Below are positions 2 to 6,934 of a stretch of 8,548 nt of DNA, piece by piece. The stretch is from IMG/VR virus record IMGVR_UViG_3300029518_000108. One strand, given 5' to 3'. How positions within the stretch are numbered: position 1 is the first letter of the stretch; the number at the start of each line of letters is the position of its first letter. A program made the translations under genes and the position numbers. Source of the stretch: a virus. Lineage: Duplodnaviria; Heunggongvirae; Uroviricota; Caudoviricetes. Under the pieces are notes generated by a model. That model was given only the letters and a program-made list of their open reading frames with translations. It was not told the origin of the DNA and did no database searches.

Positions 2-2152
2 CCTTCACATGCCGGAACCATTACCGTCTATGAAGGTTCCAGACCAGGTACGCTGAATGATTTTCTCGGTGCCATGACGGAAGATGATGTCATGCCGGAG
101 GCATTGCGTCGTTTTGAGGAAATGGTGGAAGAAGCGGCACGCAACGCTGAAGCCGCCTCTCAGAGCGCAGCGGCGGCAAAGAAATCCGAAACTGCAGCGG
201 CATCATCGAAGAACGCGGCGAAAACCTCAGAAACGAATGCAGCTAACAGCGCACAGGCGGCAGCGACCTCACAGACTGCATCGGCAAACTCCGCGACAGC
301 AGCCAAAAAATCAGAAACCAACGCGAAAAACAGCGAGACAGCCGCAAAGACGAGCGAAACCAACGCAAAGTCCAGCCAGACGGCAGCGAAGACCAGCGAA
401 ACGAATGCCAAAGCCAGTGAAACTGCGGCAAAAAACAGCCAGGTTGCAGCAGCCCAAAGCGAGAGCGCGGCAGCCGGTTCTGCGACTTCAGCAGCTGGAT
501 CAGCAACTGCTGCGGCTAACAGCCAGAAAGCTGCGAAGACGAGTGAAACTAACGCAAAGTCCAGCCAGACGGCAGCGAAGACCAGCGAAACGAATGCCAA
601 AGCCAGCGAAACTGCGGCAAAAAACAGTCAGGATGCAGCGGCCCAAAGCGAGAGTGCCGCAGCTGGTTCTGCAAGTGCGGCGGCTAATAGCCAAAAAGCT
701 GCAAAAACCAGTGAAACTAACGCAAAGACGAGTGAAACAAAAGCAGCAGCCAGCGAGACAGAAGCAACGTCAGCCGCAACAAGAGCAGAGAATGCAGCCC
801 GGATTGCAGAAGATGCCGCTGATCCTGCTTCAGTCCCTCCGCTTCCTGATATCTGGCTACCCTTGAATGATTCTCTGGAAGCGATAACAGGGTATGCCCC
901 GGGCTATAAAACAATAACCATCGGCAGTGATGAAATAACAATGCCTGTTAATGGCATATGCCAATTTAGCCGCGCTTCATCAGCAACGTATATTGATAAG
1001 TCAGGGCATATTACCGTGGCAGGGAATAACGTTCCTCGTTTTGAAAAATATGGTTTGCTGATAGAGAATCAGCGAACAAACATGTTCGTAAATAGTTTTA
1101 ATCCTGATGCGTGGAATAAAAGCGGTGGTATATCTGTAACATCATCAACAGATGAATTTGAGTTTAAATATGGACGTTTCGCAGTAGGAAGTGAGATAGC
1201 AGGAACGACAACAGGGAGAAATATATGCACAGTTGCTGGTAATAAAGGCATAGATGTGACTGGCGATGATCAGTACAGTAAAGGTCCGTATGTTACCGCG
1301 TCGTTCAGGGTAAGAAGTGATCTCAATGTTCGCGCACGTATCCGTTTTGAACGGTATAACTCGGAAGGATACACTTTCCTTTGTGACGCCTATTTGTCAT
1401 TACAGACCCATGAACTACAAATTACGGGTGGTAATGCCCAGCTATTAACAGCAAACTTTGAAATCGACCCTGGTAGTGGATGGATATATTTTCAGGCAAC
1501 ACTGAAATGTCTGCCAGAATGGGGAATGGTTGGTACGCAGCTGCAAATTGCAGCCGACAGAGCAGTGGGGGCTTTTGCAACAGGTGACTGGATAGAAGTA
1601 ACCACCCCGCAATTCGAGTATGGTGCTTGTGCAACTTCCTTTATCATAACGACAACAGAGCCAGCGACTCGTGCATCAGATTTATGTAAATTTCCGCTGA
1701 TGAAAAATATGTATACCATGCCTTTTACGTTCATGGTGGAAGTCCATAAAAACTGGTTTATTTCTCATAATGCTGCACCGCGTGTCATTGATTCAGAAAA
1801 TCACCAGTCCGGAGGCCCATTTATTATGGGGTTTGGTTCTTCTGGAACTATCAGTCAGGATGGTTATTCGTATTGCGATATAGGCGGGGCTAACCGGCGT
1901 GTATATGAGTCATGCGGAGTAAGAGATCTCGTTATGGGATTCAGGGTTAAGGCTGACGGCATGACATGCTCATTTGCAAATAAGAATATAAGCACTGAAA
2001 CCAAAACAGTATGGAAATATATTCGTGAAGCAGCCGTGATTCGTATCGGGGGGCAAACGACGACAGGATTACGACACCTTAATGGTCATATAAAAAACCT
2101 CCGTTTCTGGAACAGAGCATTGTCAGATACGCAGCTTAAGGAATACGTATAA
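2..2152 (+). CDS. stf: Side tail fibre protein (lambda Stf-like), 5'-partial: the reading frame is open from position 2, the ATG at 74 is internal
   Basis: Translation from position 2 gives PSHAGTITVYEGSRPGTLNDFLGAMTEDD..., matching the lambda Stf segment I recall (HAGTITVYEDSQPGTLNDFLCAMTEDD). This is followed by KTSETNAK/AAKTSE-type repeats and a 430-aa C-terminal module ending ...GHIKNLRFWNRALSDTQLKEYV. Stop TAA at 2150-2152. Confidence 0.9.
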   Translation, partial: PSHAGTITVYEGSRPGTLNDFLGAMTEDDVMPEALRRFEEMVEEAARNAEAASQSAAAAKKSETAAASSKNAAKTSETNAANSAQAAATSQTASANSATAAKKSETNAKNSETAAKTSETNAKSSQTAAKTSETNAKASETAAKNSQVAAAQSESAAAGSATSAAGSATAAANSQKAAKTSETNAKSSQTAAKTSETNAKASETAAKNSQDAAAQSESAAAGSASAAANSQKAAKTSETNAKTSETKAAASETEATSAATRAENAARIAEDAADPASVPPLPDIWLPLNDSLEAITGYAPGYKTITIGSDEITMPVNGICQFSRASSATYIDKSGHITVAGNNVPRFEKYGLLIENQRTNMFVNSFNPDAWNKSGGISVTSSTDEFEFKYGRFAVGSEIAGTTTGRNICTVAGNKGIDVTGDDQYSKGPYVTASFRVRSDLNVRARIRFERYNSEGYTFLCDAYLSLQTHELQITGGNAQLLTANFEIDPGSGWIYFQATLKCLPEWGMVGTQLQIAADRAVGAFATGDWIEVTTPQFEYGACATSFIITTTEPATRASDLCKFPLMKNMYTMPFTFMVEVHKNWFISHNAAPRVIDSENHQSGGPFIMGFGSSGTISQDGYSYCDIGGANRRVYESCGVRDLVMGFRVKADGMTCSFANKNISTETKTVWKYIREAAVIRIGGQTTTGLRHLNGHIKNLRFWNRALSDTQLKEYV
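347..706 (+). repeat. Near-identical tandem direct repeat inside stf: unit 1 is 347-535 (189 bp, 63 aa), unit 2 is 536-706 (about 171 bp, with an 18-bp in-frame deletion)
   Basis: Direct comparison of 347-535 with 536-706 shows only a few mismatches; the encoded peptides are both KTSETNAKSSQTAAKTSETNAKASETAAKNSQ.AAAQSESAAAGSA... Shorter degenerate copies lie at about 170-346 and 707-760. Confidence 0.9.
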
Positions 2153-2421
2153 TGCGGGATATAACATTACGATTCGATAACAGAGAACAGTTTAACGCAA
2201 TTGTATATGACAGTGGCCTGTTCAGTCTTGAAGAAGAAAATGGGGTTCTTGTTGATGTTATTGGCTGCATTATTGATTACGAGGAGCCAGAAAACGAAAG
2301 ATGTACAGGCATTGATCGCGGTGGTTTTTTCGTAAACATGAGGATTGTTGATGGCAGTAAAAACATATCTTCTTTAATGCCTTTCATTACGACAGATCAG
2401 CATGTAAGGACATGGGCTTAA
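2152..2421 (+). CDS. Hypothetical acidic 89-aa protein, translationally coupled to stf (TAATG overlap); possible fibre-tip assembly factor
   Basis: ATG at 2152 overlaps the stf stop; AAGGA at 2138-2142; same AT-rich composition as the stf C-terminal module. I recognise no motif in it. Confidence 0.55.
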   Translation: MRDITLRFDNREQFNAIVYDSGLFSLEEENGVLVDVIGCIIDYEEPENERCTGIDRGGFFVNMRIVDGSKNISSLMPFITTDQHVRTWA

Positions 2422-2433
2422 TGGAGTAAGACA

Positions 2434-3117
2434 ATGGTTACAAAAACAGTAATTCCGGGAGACATCACCACGCTAAAGGGAGATATTTCCTCAATTAACG
2501 GAAAAGTATCAACGCTTCAGACTGAGATGACCAGTGCAAAGCAGGATATCAGCACCAGATACACAAAAACTGAAGTTGATAATAAGCTGAAAAACAAAGT
2601 GGAAGCGAACGATCTGGAAAGCGGTCGTTATGGCGGTGATTTTTACCCGCTGACTGGCCGCGAAGCGTTTTATTTATGGGGGTTGGGCACGACTACTGCG
2701 GCGGCAAACCTTTATCTTAATCCTGACCCTGCAATTTCGTCTGTACTGCGGTCCACATCGTCTATCCGCTATAAACATTCAGTAGAGACGATAGATTCAG
2801 AGCACGCCGATCTCATTTTCAGGATGCGCCCTGTGTGGTACAGGTCGCAATGCGAAAATGACAGGCGTGACTGGGGGTTCTACGGATTGATTGCCGAGGA
2901 AGTAGGAGAAATTGCCCCTCAGTTTGTACACTGGCGACCAGCTAACGAAGATGATGCTCCTGAAGCTATTTCCAGCAATGGCCTTGTTGCCGAAGGTGTA
3001 ATGTACGAACGTCTGGTTGTTCCACTGATTCACCATATCCAGAAGCTGACTGAAAGAGTTGATGAACTTGAGTCAGAATTAAAGTTGTTATCCGTTTCCC
3101 GAAGCGATATCGGATAA
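2434..3117 (+). CDS. Tail-fibre-like protein, 227 aa: N-terminal coiled-coil-like segment plus a C-terminal intramolecular-chaperone (Peptidase S74-like) domain
   Basis: GGAG 7 nt upstream of the ATG. C-terminal half SSIRYKHSVETIDSEHADLIF...WGFYGLIAEEVGEIAPQFV...GVMYERLVVPLIHHIQKLTERVDELESELKLL fits the S74 chaperone pattern as I recall it (S-x-R-x-K, GLIAQEV-like core, terminal helix). Confidence 0.7.
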   Translation: MVTKTVIPGDITTLKGDISSINGKVSTLQTEMTSAKQDISTRYTKTEVDNKLKNKVEANDLESGRYGGDFYPLTGREAFYLWGLGTTTAAANLYLNPDPAISSVLRSTSSIRYKHSVETIDSEHADLIFRMRPVWYRSQCENDRRDWGFYGLIAEEVGEIAPQFVHWRPANEDDAPEAISSNGLVAEGVMYERLVVPLIHHIQKLTERVDELESELKLLSVSRSDIG

Positions 3118-3127
3118 AGGAGGCGTA

Positions 3128-3417
3128 ATGGATATAACACCTTTCCTTCATGCACTTTGTGCTGTGGCTGCGCAGGTACTGGTTGGTCTTTTTACCGGAA
3201 ACTGGGCTTACGGGGCGATAGCTGGTTGTACGTTCTTCATTGCGCGTGAACATACCCAGGCAGAATATCGCTGGATTGAAATGTTCGGGCATGGCAAGCG
3301 TATGAATATGCCGTGGTGGGGCGGTTTTGATCCGCGCGCGTGGGATGTGGCAAGCCTGATGGATTTTGCTGTGCCGGTGGTGGCGTGTCTGCTGGTCTGG
3401 CTGTTGGTTAATCGTGG
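3128..3417 (+). CDS. Small predicted inner-membrane protein (about 3 hydrophobic helices); 3' end undetermined because the ORF runs into the assembly gap
   Basis: Strong Shine-Dalgarno AAGGAGG at 3117-3123, ATG at 3128. Hydrophobic stretches FLHALCAVAAQVLVGLF, YGAIAGCTFFIA, VASLMDFAVPVVACLLVWLLV. The listed ORF end at 3505 crosses the N-run and is not trustworthy. Confidence 0.5.
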
Positions 3418-3427
3418 NNNNNNNNNN
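3418..3427. other. Assembly gap (run of 10 N); true length and content unknown
   Basis: Ten consecutive n characters; flanking genes are incomplete on both sides. Confidence 0.99.
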
Positions 3428-3438
3428 AAAAAAGGTGA

Positions 3439-3567
3439 GCTGTATATGCAACGGAGGAAGAAAACTCGTTGCTGGAAGCCTGGAAAAAGTATCGGGTATT
3501 GCTGAACCGTGTTGATACGTCAACTGCACCTGATATTGAGTGGCCTACGAACCCTGTCAGGGAGTAA
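3439..3567 (+). CDS. tfa: 3'-terminal fragment of a tail fibre assembly (Tfa) gene; N-terminal part missing in or before the gap
   Basis: Frame ending at TAA 3565-3567 translates to ...[38 protein letters not shown], matching the conserved lambda Tfa C-terminus as I recall it ([26 protein letters not shown]). An in-frame TGA at 3436-3438 sits just after the gap. Confidence 0.7.
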
Positions 3568-3682: not shown

Positions 3683-3931
3683 TTAGTGAACAAACCACTC
3701 GTCAGCAGACTCCCAGGTATCTTTCAGAGTTTCCTGAACAAAAGTTTTAGCTGAATCTTTATCGGCGGTGCGCGTAACAGAAAGGCCATCGTTGCTGGTA
3801 GCTTTTACGATCACCTCTACATCGTCATAACGTTTACTGATGCGTCGGGTTAATTCTTCCTTTAACGCATCCACAGCACCGGTTGGCATTTTAGTCATTT
3901 TTTCTTTGGCTATGCAGATTTCAATACGCAT
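3683..3931 (-). CDS. DinI-like protein (prophage-encoded DinI family, 82 aa)
   Basis: MRIEICIAK...[11 protein letters not shown] resembles E. coli DinI as I recall it (MRIEVTIAK...TWESADDWFV). GAGGG Shine-Dalgarno upstream on the minus strand; SOS promoter directly upstream. Confidence 0.85.
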
Positions 3932-3946
3932 AAAAGTCCCTCTACA

Positions 3947-3962
3947 CTGTGTTTGTATACAG
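3947..3962. promoter_or_regulatory. LexA box 1 (CTGT-N8-ACAG: CTGTGTTTGTATACAG) between the -10 and the dinI-like start codon
   Basis: Exact match to the CTGT-N8-ACAG core with an AT-rich centre; extended site is ACTGTGTTTGTATACAGTAT. Confidence 0.8.
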
Positions 3963-3967
3963 TATCA

Positions 3968-3996
3968 TTTTTAACTGTATGGATAAACAGTGTCAA
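3968..3996 (-). promoter_or_regulatory. Sigma70-type promoter of the dinI-like gene: -35 TTGACA (plus-strand coordinates 3991-3996), 17-bp spacer, -10 TAAAAA (3968-3973)
   Basis: Minus-strand read is TTGACA-ctgtttatccatacagt-TAAAAA; perfect -35, 4/6 -10, about 35 nt to the ATG. No transcription start mapped. Confidence 0.6.
3975..3990. promoter_or_regulatory. LexA box 2 (CTGTATGGATAAACAG) filling the -35/-10 spacer
   Basis: Exact CTGT-N8-ACAG core; extended site is AACTGTATGGATAAACAGTG. Confidence 0.8.
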
Positions 3997-4017
3997 GGGT
4001 GAAGGAAAGTGATTTTT

Positions 4018-4076
4018 TGGGGCATGCATGGGGCAAAAATATTTGTTGTGGGGCATTTTGGGGCATGATTGGGACA
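4018..4076. repeat. Five helically phased direct copies of TGGGGCA(T/A) (starts 4018, 4029, 4049, 4059; degenerate TGGGACA at 4070)
   Basis: Read directly; spacings are 11, 20, 10 and 11 bp, i.e. roughly one helical turn. Located between the dinI-like promoter and the prophage/yecE junction. Confidence 0.85.
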
Positions 4077-4178
4077 CTTTGTTACATATGAACTTTGCCG
4101 ATTTTTATATGACATGGAAATACAACGCTTTGATTCTTCTAAATAAAAAACATGCTCTTGGGCGTTCTTTAGTGATTT

Positions 4179-4289
4179 TTAAAAATTCCGTATCACGCAG
4201 TTAAAGTGGCGGGCATACTCTTCAAGGCTGGTGATCCCCAACCGCACCCATTTAGGATGCGACCATTGCGGCAGACCGATGTAAATCAT
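4179..4289 (-). pseudogene. yecE: yecE 5' stub (about 32 native codons) fused to 4 phage-derived codons and a stop; gene disrupted by prophage insertion
   Basis: ATG at 4287-4289 overlaps the yecD stop (ATGA). Translation [36 protein letters not shown]-stop. The N-terminus fits the YecE/DUF72 pattern as I recall it; the ORF ends prematurely in AT-rich DNA. Confidence 0.6.
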
Positions 4290-4852
4290 AATGCGTTGAG
4301 GATCTCTTCCACACTGCGCACACGGGCGATGCGTGGGTAGATATGGTTGATGCTGTTATTGTGCTGCTCGGCGCTGGCGGCGCTGCAGGCGTCTTCGGCA
4401 ATCACCAGATTAAAACCGAGTTCCCAGGCATTGCGGGCGGTGGATTCAACACCGATATTGGTCGAGATCCCACATAAAACAATGGTATCGATATCCCGGC
4501 GGCGTAATTGCAACTCCAGATCCGTACCGTAAAACGCACCCCATTGACGTTTGATGATTTCGATATCGCTGTCGGTTGCACCTAATGCAGCAGGATGTTG
4601 CCACCAGTTTTCGGGTAACACTTTAGCGGGGGAAGGGGCATCAACCGGCTGTTTTAATGCTTCGGCGTAATCGGCAGACCAGCCAACGCGCACCAGAAAC
4701 ACGGGCTGACCGCTGGCGCGAAATTTTGCCGCCAGCTTCCCGGCGCGATTAACCACCTCATCGGCAGTATGTGGACCACCGGCAAAAGGTAAGATGCCTT
4801 CTTGTAAATCGATCACCACCAGCGCAGTGGTTTTAGCATTAAGTTCAAGCAT
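4286..4852 (-). CDS. yecD: Isochorismatase-family hydrolase YecD (188 aa)
   Basis: Protein [19 protein letters not shown]...[16 protein letters not shown]... has isochorismatase-like motifs. AGGAG sits 6 nt upstream of the ATG at 4852; the listed ORF start at 4885 is an upstream GTG without a Shine-Dalgarno. Confidence 0.9.
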
Positions 4853-5161
4853 GCTGACTCCTGACAAAACAAAATCGTGCCTCACACCTTAATGCGATTA
4901 GCCGATGGCGGAACGACAAATTTTGTTAATTTTTATGAGTTCGGGCAACACCTTTATAGCAAACTGGCGTAGAGTCTGATTTCAGGCCCGATATAAAGTG
5001 GTAACGAGGTGTTCCAGCGCGGGCCAGGCTCTTACGGTGCGGCAGAATTTCCAGTATAATAGCCGCCTTTTTTCATTCAGTTGTGACATACAGCTAACGC
5101 TGCGACTTGGTCACCTGCGCAGCAGGGGGCATCCGCCGGCAGCTAAGTTAAGGGATATCTC
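4853..5161. promoter_or_regulatory. Divergent yecD/aspS intergenic region; candidate aspS promoter -10 TATAAT at 5055-5060 with a weak -35 (TTACGG, 5032-5037)
   Basis: A perfect TATAAT hexamer lies about 100 nt upstream of the aspS ATG; the -35 is poor. Sequence-only prediction. Confidence 0.3.
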
Positions 5162-6934
5162 ATGCGTACAGAATATTGTGGACAGCTCCGTTTGTCCCAC
5201 GTGGGGCAGCAGGTGACTCTGTGTGGTTGGGTCAACCGTCGTCGTGATCTTGGTAGCCTGATCTTCATCGATATGCGCGACCGCGAAGGTATCGTGCAGG
5301 TATTTTTCGATCCGGATCGTGCGGACGCGTTAAAGCTGGCCTCTGAACTGCGTAATGAGTTCTGCATTCAGGTCACGGGCACCGTACGTGCGCGTGACGA
5401 AAAAAATATTAACCGCGATATGGCGACCGGCGAAATTGAAGTGCTGGCGTCCTCGCTGACTATCATCAACCGCGCAGATGTTCTGCCGCTTGACTCTAAC
5501 CACGTCAACACCGAAGAAGCGCGTCTGAAATACCGCTACCTCGACCTGCGTCGCCCGGAAATGGCTCAGCGCCTGAAAACCCGCGCTAAAATCACCAGCC
5601 TGGTGCGCCGTTTTATGGATGACCACGGCTTCCTCGACATCGAAACTCCGATGCTGACCAAAGCCACGCCGGAAGGCGCGCGAGACTACCTGGTGCCTTC
5701 TCGTGTGCACAAAGGTAAATTCTACGCACTGCCGCAATCCCCGCAGTTGTTCAAACAGCTGCTGATGATGTCCGGTTTTGACCGTTACTATCAGATCGTT
5801 AAATGCTTCCGTGACGAAGACCTGCGCGCTGATCGTCAGCCTGAATTTACTCAGATCGATGTGGAAACTTCTTTCATGACCGCCCCGCAAGTGCGTGAAG
5901 TGATGGAAGCGCTGGTGCGTCATCTGTGGCTGGAAGTGAAGGGTGTGGATATGGGCGATTTCCCGGTAATGACCTTTGCGGAAGCAGAACGCCGTTATGG
6001 TTCTGATAAACCGGATCTGCGTAACCCGATGGAACTGACTGACGTTGCTGATCTGCTGAAATCTGTTGAGTTTGCTGTATTTGCAGGTCCGGCGAACGAT
6101 CCGAAAGGTCGCGTAGCGGCTCTGCGCGTTCCGGGCGGCGCATCGCTGACCCGTAAGCAGATCGACGAATACGGTAACTTCGTTAAAATCTACGGCGCGA
6201 AAGGTCTGGCTTACATCAAAGTTAACGAACGCGCGAAAGGTCTGGAAGGTATCAACAGCCCGGTAGCGAAGTTCCTTAATGCAGAAATCATCGAAGCCAT
6301 CCTGGATCGTACTGCCGCGCAAGATGGCGATATGATTTTCTTCGGTGCCGACAACAAGAAAATTGTTGCCGACGCGATGGGTGCACTGCGCCTGAAAGTG
6401 GGTAAAGACCTTGGTCTGACCGACGAAAGCAAATGGGCACCGCTGTGGGTTATCGATTTCCCGATGTTTGAAGACGACGGTGAAGGCGGCCTGACGGCAA
6501 TGCACCATCCGTTCACCTCACCAAAAGACATGACTGCTGCAGAACTGAAAGCTGCACCAGAAAATGCGGTGGCGAACGCTTACGATATGGTCATCAATGG
6601 TTACGAAGTGGGCGGTGGTTCTGTGCGTATCCATAATGGTGATATGCAGCAGACGGTGTTTGGTATTCTGGGTATCAACGAAGAGGAACAGCGCGAGAAA
6701 TTCGGCTTCCTGCTCGACGCCCTGAAATACGGTACTCCGCCGCACGCAGGTCTGGCATTCGGTCTTGACCGTCTGACCATGCTGCTGACCGGCACCGACA
6801 ATATCCGTGACGTTATCGCCTTCCCGAAAACCACGGCGGCAGCGTGTCTGATGACTGAAGCACCGAGCTTTGCTAACCCGACTGCACTGGCTGAGCTGAG
6901 CATTCAGGTTGTGAAGAAGGCAGAGAATAACTGA
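5162..6934 (+). CDS. aspS: Aspartate--tRNA ligase (590 aa)
   Basis: Full-length ORF; N-terminus [31 protein letters not shown] and class II synthetase motifs ([23 protein letters not shown]); length matches E. coli AspRS. Confidence 0.97.

Follow-up and report, generated by a model that had tools for sequence, protein, structure and literature searches.

A mosaic lambda-type side tail fibre ending in a sugar-binding-type, two-domain knob

The first gene of the window (the whole 8,548-nt stretch of viral DNA that was analysed) is a mosaic side tail fibre (stf) gene, in which a lambda-like repeat shaft carries a two-domain knob of a sugar-binding (LamG/galectin-like) type. The fibre type itself is ordinary and already catalogued from E. 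coli prophages, having a name in the NCBI annotation pipeline, a group in PHROGs and a homologue in the work on the BASEL collection, and its knob is common to many coliphages. On balance, the fibre is probably a lambdoid Stf with a non-enzymatic lectin knob, which moves as an exchangeable low-GC cassette together with an ORF of ~90 aa and usually a second fibre. The features are as follows:

2..2152, + strand: side tail fibre (Stf) gene, 5′ end cut by the window, stop codon TAA at 2150-2152
128..844, + strand: Ala/Ser/Thr/Lys/Glu-rich repeat shaft, lambda Stf-like (Tandem Repeats Finder, identity to lambda orf-401, composition)
659..720, + strand: exchange joint between shaft and tip cassette, relative to the closest other lambdoid fibres (megablast, binned identity, GC3)
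839..877, + strand: shaft-to-knob junction motif PLPDIW-LPLNDSL, conserved in alignments A1 and A2
905..1096, + strand: beta-strand neck (module aa 17-80; motif FSRASSATY...PRFE..GLLIE..RTN), from conservation and AlphaFold strands
1097..1630, + strand: middle beta-sandwich of the "phage head spike fiber" (GTA_spike_fiber) family (module aa 81-258), from NF048003
1664..2149, + strand: C-terminal LamG/ConA-like (Laminin_G_3-type) domain (module aa 270-431), with the helix ...DTQLKEYV at its end
2152..2421, + strand: partner ORF of 89 aa, phrog_1361, its start overlapping the stf stop (TAATG)
2434..3117, + strand: second fibre protein of 227 aa (orf227), with an MVTKTVIPxDITxLK N-terminus, a short coiled coil and Peptidase_S74

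The translated stf reading frame is already open at nt 2, so that the gene is cut by the 5′ end of the window and the ATG at 74 is internal. About 92 residues are absent upstream, as judged from the profile positions at which the matches begin, and the 3′ four-fifths of this lambdoid prophage stf gene lie in the window; the full-length gene of E. coli NR301 and of phage PhiR11_1 encodes 785 aa. The lambda Stf-type "Prophage tail fibre N-terminal" family (PF08400) was matched at 38.4 bits, against a cut-off of 26.6, with only positions 93-131 of 134 present because the window cuts the gene; two full-length homologues (P0003 and P0005) carry both PF08400 and PF13620. PHROG 1419 (tail protein) was matched from end to end of the available protein, at 1053.6 bits (aa 1-692 against profile positions 93-793 of 793). 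A tRNA scan of the whole window found none.

Residues 1-204 of the fibre are 53% identical to residues 69-286 of lambda Stf orf-401, and the two fibres have in common the PF08400 attachment domain, an alanine-rich repeat shaft and a place after J and lom. The likeness to lambda ends there: in BLASTP with the whole fibre, neither orf-314 (the C-terminal half of lambda Stf) nor Tfa was matched at E<=0.01, orf-401 alone being found, and instead of a tfa-type assembly gene 3′ of the fibre there are the 89-aa ORF and the S74-chaperone protein. The preliminary description, made from the sequence alone, had read the gene as a mosaic lambda Stf-like fibre with an AT-richer C-terminal part and an end unlike that of lambda Stf, and the analysis bears it out.

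The shaft is 33% alanine, 16% serine and 12% threonine, and at 329-745 Tandem Repeats Finder identified a tandem duplication of 189 nt (63 aa), within which the sub-period is 21 nt (a heptad). Composition changes sharply inside the gene, as had been claimed from hand counts that proved exact (61.7% GC at 421-480 and 36.7% at 1081-1140). GC content is 55.3% over nt 2-865 (0.55/0.64/0.47 at codon positions 1/2/3) and 43.1% over nt 866-2149 (0.47/0.46/0.36), and the likelihood ratio for a change point was reached by 0/300 codon shuffles, both with all positions and with GC3 alone; neither GC nor GC3 is uniform along the gene. The maximum-likelihood change point lies at nt 905 for all positions, at nt 842 for codon position 2, and at nt 659 for codon position 3 (silent sites), where GC3 falls from 0.52 to 0.35. 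The position-2 switch reflects amino-acid composition, at the point where the alanine-rich shaft ends. Matches by megablast at 98% identity to 2G7b, ev207, Tritos, PhiR49_1 and others end at nt 685, and binned identity to 2G7b drops from at least 0.92 to about 0.55 at nt 720. An island of local identity to 2G7b and phage 21 lies at 841-900, at the shaft-knob junction, where the motif ...DPASVPPLPDIW was found with its PDIW at nt 845-856. Thus, a switch at 830-870, as originally placed, corresponds to the amino-acid boundary but not to the silent-site switch or the identity break at nt 685-720, both of which fall within the repeats. An intragenic GC step in a tail-fibre gene can be largely an effect of amino-acid composition, and a recombination joint is better placed by third-position GC in conjunction with identity breaks.

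The same architecture (N-terminus, shaft, knob and ~90-aa ORF) is present in phage 21, 2G7b, ev207, Tritos and the PhiR phages. While the shaft of 2G7b and ev207 is 98% shared up to nt 685, the other lambdoid knob alleles are 42-48% identical in protein to that of the window; the alleles of the window, 2G7b and phage 21 are nonetheless alike in composition, at ~43% GC and ~36% GC3. The closest non-lambdoid relatives of the tip are only ~50% identical. Taken together, these values indicate that the visible event is a swap of alleles between fibres of the same architecture.

A recent capture of a foreign tip by a lambda-type Stf from a lower-GC donor, with fusion at nt 830-870, was the original proposal. 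It is unlikely, and the acquisition as such was not demonstrated, even though the tip does stand apart (43% GC and 36% GC3) from the shaft (55% and 47%) and from the host genes in the window (GC3 of 0.49-0.58). Homologous tips of T5-like, T1-like and Seuratvirus phages are also low in GC (40-41%), making a long-term flow from lower-GC virulent phages plausible. However, the silent-site switch and the identity break lie at nt 660-720 rather than at 830-870; all lambdoid alleles, that of the classical phage 21 among them, have this low GC even though their proteins diverge by more than 50%; and the allele is at most about 52% identical to that of any non-lambdoid phage. Moreover, of 5426 complete E. 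coli genomes, 141 have the allele fixed together with its shaft at no less than 95% nt identity. In Dhillonvirus KarlBarth, which is 54% GC, the homologous tip likewise has a GC content of 54%, so composition tracks residence time.

A reading with no signal of horizontal transfer, in which GC drops simply because an alanine-rich shaft gives way to an ordinary globular domain, accounts for the largest drop being at codon position 2 (0.64 to 0.46) and for its switch at the end of the repeats. It is very improbable, and largely refuted by the GC3 and identity-break results: the GC3 drop, matched by none of the shuffles, lies 180 nt upstream of the protein switch, at the point where nucleotide identity to sister fibres is lost. 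In addition, the low-GC block runs past 2152 through the next downstream ORF (39% GC) to about nt 2600.

The knob begins with the neck, for which AlphaFold predicts strands. It is the most conserved segment, with a mean identity in alignment A2 of 52% versus 27% in the middle domain, and its alignment to Rcc01080, the head-spike fibre of the Rhodobacter capsulatus gene transfer agent (RcGTA), begins at residue 45. The middle domain matched NF048003 at 47.8 bits, above the cut-off of 36, over nt 1058-1675 (profile positions 1-181 of 182). The A2 profile also found Rcc01080 with an E-value of 7.8e-37 (residues 45-282) and the proteins Pa193 gp46 and E217 gp45 with E-values of about 2e-14. The AlphaFold model used was built from a diverse 39-sequence alignment and gave the middle domain a pLDDT above 90; an initial run with 25 close homologues (about 50% identity) reached a pLDDT of 51, with confidence in the middle domain alone, and was discarded. 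The middle domain has the lowest conservation of the tip module, whereas the neck and the C-terminal strands have the highest, the pattern expected of a specificity domain on a conserved scaffold, and it is the likeliest determinant of specificity.

The end of the fibre is a genuine LamG/ConA-like domain, as its last residues had suggested. The C-terminal string GLRHLNGHIKNLRFWNRALSDTQLKEYV was found, and it aligns to the end of Pfam Laminin_G_3 (PF13385); the alignment covers module aa 380-427 and profile positions 104-150 of 151, within a domain formed by the last ~160 aa. For the C-terminal module of this fibre the score was 20.8 bits (E 4.6e-4), below the cut-off of 27.6, but 34 of 38 family members matched at E<=0.01 and several relatives exceeded the cut-off (P0174 at 41.4 bits over profile positions 8-151, P0235 at 30.0 and P0242 at 28.0). 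Domain profiles also matched solved LamG-type structures, and the fold is a beta-sandwich jelly roll superposable on LamG, pentraxin or lectin structures. When the whole 692-aa protein was scanned against Pfam, no LamG match appeared even at E<=1; the match emerged only when the C-terminal module was scanned alone, so the whole-protein negative is not evidence of absence. We would guess that the low-complexity shaft affects the score correction. No paper naming this module came up in a literature search on tail fibres and LamG.

The neck and middle domain are homologous to Rcc01080 (PDB 6TB9 chain F3) at about 25% identity. That protein binds capsular polysaccharide (PMC7296036, PMC10218006), and is a 325-aa monomer that sits on the capsid pentamer through its N-terminal nine residues, lacking both a shaft and a C-terminal Laminin_G_3 domain. 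The shaft of the window fibre is presumably trimeric; the Rcc01080 homologue is a monomer. Because only residues 2-10 of Rcc01080 have been resolved experimentally (PMC7296036), the PDB entry holds no fold information and was set aside as a guide to the fold. The suggestion of a carbohydrate-binding tip is reasonable given the match to the capsule-binding RcGTA family (PMC10218006), and the knob may bind glycans, by analogy with the fold and this one distant relative. As a counterpoint to the lectin view, two Pseudomonas myophage proteins of the baseplate wedge, E217 gp45 (8ENV) and Pa193 gp46 (9B45), contain homologous domains; they belong to the "triplex" of contractile tails and are not fibre tips, and the role described for them in the E217 work is structural and includes the anchoring of fibres by a different loop (PMC10329688).

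The knob does not travel alone. Nine other loci, from lambdoid phages and five other phage groups, were inspected, and in each of them (9/9) a homologue of the 89-aa ORF comes directly after the homologous tip; a second fibre gene usually, but not always, accompanies the pair. In the window this third gene is orf227, with a Peptidase_S74 intramolecular chaperone (PF13884) at aa 109-165 (26.6 bits, cut-off 22). Its N-terminal motif is common to the third cassette gene of PhiR11_1, KurtStettler, HMD-P4, swan01, 2G7b, KarlBarth and IrisVonRoten (Gp24), and the distal parts vary widely in length, from 98 to 574 aa. Hence the tip predicted to bind the receptor may not be the only or final tip of the fibre, since the cassette adds the ~90-aa ORF and a second fibre. 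Tips of this kind are widespread: besides lambdoids such as phage 21, they are present in T5-like, T1-like, Dhillonvirus, Queuovirinae and rV5-like phages; the groups carrying the cassette are lambdoids (unclassified prophage-derived, Nesevirus, Jouyvirus), Seuratvirus, Tequintavirus, Warwickvirus, Dhillonvirus and Vequintavirus. PhiR11_1, a complete deposited phage genome, holds the same allele at 99.8% nt identity; its record lists E. coli K-12 MG1655 as host, and a literature search on this phage found no paper.

The closest described counterpart is the lateral fibre locus of IrisVonRoten (Bas32, Tequintavirus), which has the same gene order and stop/start overlap. Residues 371-796 of its Gp22 are 50.6% identical to the tip over 431 aa, Gp23 is 33% identical to orf89, and Gp24 resembles orf227 both in its S74 chaperone and in its N-terminal motif, which is 57% identical over 28 aa. 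Humolli et al. (2025) present Gp22 as a proximal fibre whose C-terminal, galectin-like domain protrudes and could be an additional receptor-binding domain; Gp24, a T-shaped distal fibre, is attached to Gp22 according to AlphaFold-Multimer predictions (PMC11990801). At the level of genes and homology, this two-component layout of knob, small ORF and docking-motif protein is reproduced in the window. There, in contrast, the fibre N-terminus is of the lambda type (PF08400), for a lambdoid rather than a T5-type tail, and the third gene is minimal, encoding 227 aa of which about 108 form the mature part. Two other published fibres are functional analogies only, neither having the knob: Gifsy-1 Stf has a lambda-type tip and DT57C LtfA, of the LtfA/LtfB pair, ends in an S74 chaperone.

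Under the favoured reading, the fibre consists of three parts: a lambda-type N-terminus for virion attachment, a heptad-periodic alanine-rich shaft and a 430-residue all-beta knob, the last comprising the conserved strand neck, the variable "GTA head-spike fibre" beta-sandwich and the C-terminal LamG/galectin-like jelly roll. The knob would bind an E. coli surface polysaccharide (O-antigen, capsule or another glycan) reversibly, as a primary and facultative adsorption step, and engagement of the terminal receptor by the J tip protein would follow. The low-GC cassette includes the knob, the translationally coupled ~90-aa ORF and usually the second, short fibre protein, which may attach to the proximal fibre through its conserved N-terminal docking motif; docking of orf227 onto Stf is proposed by analogy with the predicted Gp22/Gp24 complex. 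Alleles of the cassette are swapped between phages by recombination, either at the conserved PLPDIW junction or, as here near nt 660-720, within the repeats of the shaft.

Alternatively, the knob could be mainly a structural hub that docks a distal fibre, with the 89-aa protein perhaps as adaptor and specificity residing in the distal fibre. The constancy of the third-gene docking motif beside such variable distal parts would suit a hub, as would the discussion of IrisVonRoten O16 specificity in terms of the receptor-binding domains of Gp24 (PMC11990801) and the identity of the solved middle-domain homologues as wedge proteins that anchor fibres (PMC10329688). Nevertheless, this alternative has only a modest chance of being correct: phage 21, whose cassette lacks the third gene found in the window, and the rV5-like EmilHeitz have the tip and small ORF without such a gene; the only functionally tested relative binds polysaccharide (PMC10218006); the fibre-attachment loop of E217 gp45 (residues 76-123) lies outside the homologous region (residues 198-442); and the knob alleles are very divergent, with a mean identity of 27% in their middle domain, for which diversification driven by receptors is a better explanation than a pure adaptor. 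Least probable of all is an enzyme, that is, a glycanase or lyase of the ConA-like fold that degrades O-antigen or capsule as tailspikes do, which was rejected since, although GH16 glucanases and PL7 lyases belong to the ConA-like superfamily, what is matched in such chains is their binding modules without catalytic function (AbnA domain 4, CBM40), the best matches are lectin-type domains, no glycoside-hydrolase or lyase family was matched in Pfam or NCBIfam, and no GH16-type ExDxxE motif was seen on inspection of the translation.

A broader and more speculative proposal is that knob, 89-aa ORF and third gene together make up a self-contained, mobile "fibre-end cassette", the LamG-like knob serving at once as a lectin and as a universal socket. 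If this were true, the cassette would pass between temperate lambdoids on the one hand and, on the other, virulent siphophages (T5-like, T1-like, Queuovirinae and Dhillonvirus), with rV5-type myophages carrying at least the pair of knob and small ORF. The ~90-aa protein would be an adaptor or chaperone, any distal fibre bearing MVTKTVIPxDITxLK could plug in, and the 227-aa gene of the window would represent a minimal plug, consisting of docking motif and self-cleaving chaperone with almost no receptor-binding part. As a widespread module, the knob with its ~90-aa partner and plug-in second fibre is a candidate for host-range engineering of lambdoid and T5/T1-like phages.

The window comprises E. 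coli chromosomal DNA in which a lambdoid prophage ends, and its genes are arranged as follows.

From beyond the 5′ edge to nt 2152, plus strand: side tail fibre gene (stf), frame open from nt 2
2152–2421, plus strand: 89-aa ORF (orf89; phrog_1361, no known function), its ATG overlapping the stf stop (TAATG)
2434–3117, plus strand: 227-aa fibre protein with Peptidase_S74 chaperone (orf227)
3128–3427, plus strand: small membrane-protein gene, interrupted by a run of 10 Ns
3683–3931, minus strand: DinI-like gene
Thereafter, in this order: yecD-like isochorismatase gene, aspS, nudB, yebC

Matches of the fibre to PF08400 and phrog_1419 both begin at profile position 93, indicating that the window lacks the first ~92 residues of the protein; the E. 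coli NR301 copy of the gene encodes 785 aa and is located downstream of J and lom. The N run (3418–3427), which points to a gap left by scaffolding a draft assembly, falls exactly at the end of the gene for a 97-aa two-TM protein (phrog_1443), a homologue of phage 21 CPT_21_24, and gene order across it agrees with NR301. A 125-aa ORF (3128–3505, plus strand) was rejected as an artefact of a frame read through the Ns. Phage genes end with the DinI-like gene, which is followed by the yecD-like gene (region 3683–4285), and neither an integrase nor a tRNA was found within the window. In NR301, this fibre cassette and the DinI gene are part of a prophage inserted at dusA, next to an integrase; thus, related cassette-bearing prophages occupy different chromosomal sites.

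Scanned alone, the C-terminal 431 aa of the fibre (the tip, or knob; nt 857–2149) gave a sub-threshold match to Laminin_G_3 (20.8 bits, E 4.6e-4), covering exactly the residues in which the preliminary description had seen a LamG-like end. The same profile is matched by 28 of the 39 relatives scanned at full length and by 34 of 38 C-terminal domains scanned in isolation, and its curated cut-off is passed by three of ten distant relatives scanned one by one. The distant relative P0174 passes over profile positions 8–151, which map to the last ~160 residues of the window's fibre. A C-terminal domain profile also matched three solved LamG-type chains: 4qvs (8.7e-5), the botulinum neurotoxin D domain (6e-4), and C-reactive protein (1e-3). 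These results from relatives settle the assignment of the fibre end. An AlphaFold model of the tip, built from a diverse 39-sequence alignment, is confident (pLDDT 88, pTM 0.87), almost all beta, and comprises three parts.

Tip aa 17–80: strand neck
Tip aa 81–258: sandwich (middle)
Tip aa 270–431: second sandwich, with a short helix at its end

Foldseek added tandem galectins from the PDB to the fold matches and, among viral models, recovered both domains in this arrangement from many phage proteins that bear a ConA-like label. Profile matches in relatives, model, and fold searches all agree on a LamG/ConA-like end, and the structural interpretation was right; neither a lack of such matches or fold nor a uniform composition was found, since both matches and fold were recovered and the composition change described below is real.

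The region preceding the LamG-like domain scores above the cut-off of NCBIfam NF048003 ("phage head spike fiber domain"; 47.8 vs 36 bits), and the family profile matches Rcc01080, the head-spike fibre of RcGTA (E 7.8e-37), as well as baseplate wedge proteins from the Pseudomonas phages Pa193 and E217 (about 2e-14). The RcGTA fibre, the only tested relative, binds capsular polysaccharide (PMC7296036, PMC10218006). Within the tip, mean identity is lowest in the middle sandwich (27%; LamG domain, 34%; neck, 52%), and this most variable part is a candidate specificity determinant.

The tip belongs to a three-gene cassette. At each of nine further loci examined, drawn from lambdoid phages and five additional groups of phages, the tip is directly followed by a ~90-aa ORF (phrog_1361) whose start overlaps the stop of the tip gene; orf89 and its homologues share the motifs (M)+D+TL+F, LLD.IG, and GYFVN+RI, and orf89 may be the knob's adaptor or chaperone. 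The third gene starts with MVTKTVIPxDITxLK in seven of the nine, diverges completely beyond it, and often carries an S74 intramolecular chaperone at its end. Here, orf227, a "tail fiber domain" protein, consists almost only of a short coiled coil between a conserved N-terminal motif (MVTKTVIPGDITTLKGD) and the Peptidase_S74 intramolecular chaperone (aa 109–165), with a likely cleavage site near ...STS/SIRYK that would leave about 108 aa in the mature protein. The similar version in phage swan01 is 224 aa long, whereas PhiR11_1 combines the same knob allele with a different, 346-aa version. In phage 21 (5951–9275), the cassette is directly followed by a sitABCD operon for iron/manganese transport, whose annotation calls it a plasmid-like cargo.

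The equivalent genes of Tequintavirus IrisVonRoten encode Gp22 (aa 371–796 50.6% identical to the window's tip), Gp23 (33% identical to orf89), and Gp24 (N-terminus 57% identical to that of orf227). The module has thus already been published under another name, as homologous Gp22 is the proximal fibre to which the T-shaped fibre Gp24 is predicted to attach (Humolli et al. 2025, PMC11990801). Most likely, the window encodes a trimeric lambda-type side fibre ending in lectin-like knobs, which would bind a surface glycan reversibly as a primary, dispensable adsorption step; BASEL work has argued that O-antigen is the general target of lateral fibres in these siphophages (PMC8594841). In addition, the knob probably holds a small distal fibre made from orf227. 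A knob serving purely as an adaptor is less likely than one that both binds glycan and docks this fibre, and a knob acting as an enzyme is likewise less likely. Glycan binding, oligomeric arrangement, and docking are all inferred here.

A lambda-like shaft with a non-lambda tip had been proposed, and lambda orf-401 is indeed 53% identical to fibre aa 1–204, while orf-314 and Tfa have no match anywhere in the window's fibre. The earlier hand counts of GC (61.7% and 36.7%) were exact. Fibre GC falls from 55.3% (nt 2–865) to 43.1% (nt 866–2149), with a likelihood change point at nt 905 matched by 0 of 300 codon shuffles; the change is real and non-random, and a mere composition artefact is the less likely explanation. 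The switch placed at 830–870, however, mainly reflects protein composition: GC at codon position 2 drops from 0.64 to 0.46 at nt 842 because the Ala/Ser/Thr-rich shaft (33%, 16%, and 12%) ends. Silent sites (position 3) drop from 0.52 to 0.35 at nt 659, coinciding with the identity break to sister fibres: nt 1–685 are 98% identical in 2G7b, ev207, Tritos, PhiR49_1, and others, and binned identity to 2G7b falls to about 55% from nt 720. The allele-exchange joint (nt 660–720) thus lies ~130–190 nt upstream of the proposed switch, inside a 189-nt (63-aa) tandem duplication of the shaft (329–745, plus strand; about 2 copies, 82–91% matches). The shaft is built of 21-nt (heptad) units, and the duplication of 21- and 42-nt sub-repeats, which provides plenty of internal homology.

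The module family is large: at E<=1e-3, it comprises 2056 representatives of 50%-identity clusters and 2375 matches in a 90%-identity database, and it also includes 218 phage records. Carriers include lambdoid phages (classical phage 21, 2G7b, ev207, and ECOR-derived PhiR phages) and T5-like, T1-like (Drexlerviridae), Dhillonvirus, Queuovirinae, and rV5-like phages, with tips 33–52% identical to the window's allele. That exact allele is 99.8% identical in PhiR11_1 (recorded host, E. coli K-12 MG1655) and occurs at >=95% identity in 141 of 5426 complete E. coli genomes. Tip GC is 40–44% (GC3 29–37%) in lambdoid, T5-like, T1-like, and Seuratvirus examples, against local backgrounds of 39 to 51%, and 48% in an rV5-like example; in Dhillonvirus KarlBarth (4001–5257; genome 54% GC), it is 54% (GC3 60%). 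The cassette thus seems to keep its low GC in most hosts and to be fully ameliorated in the KarlBarth lineage. Recent acquisition from a low-GC donor, as first suggested, is unsupported, since lambdoid alleles differ at more than half of residues yet are all low in GC, and no lower-GC phage among the records compared has a close copy; this evolutionary inference, like the boundary, needs correction. The fibre end is of a known, widespread kind, and the data show instead allele swapping among fibres already of this architecture, with the joint in the repeats.
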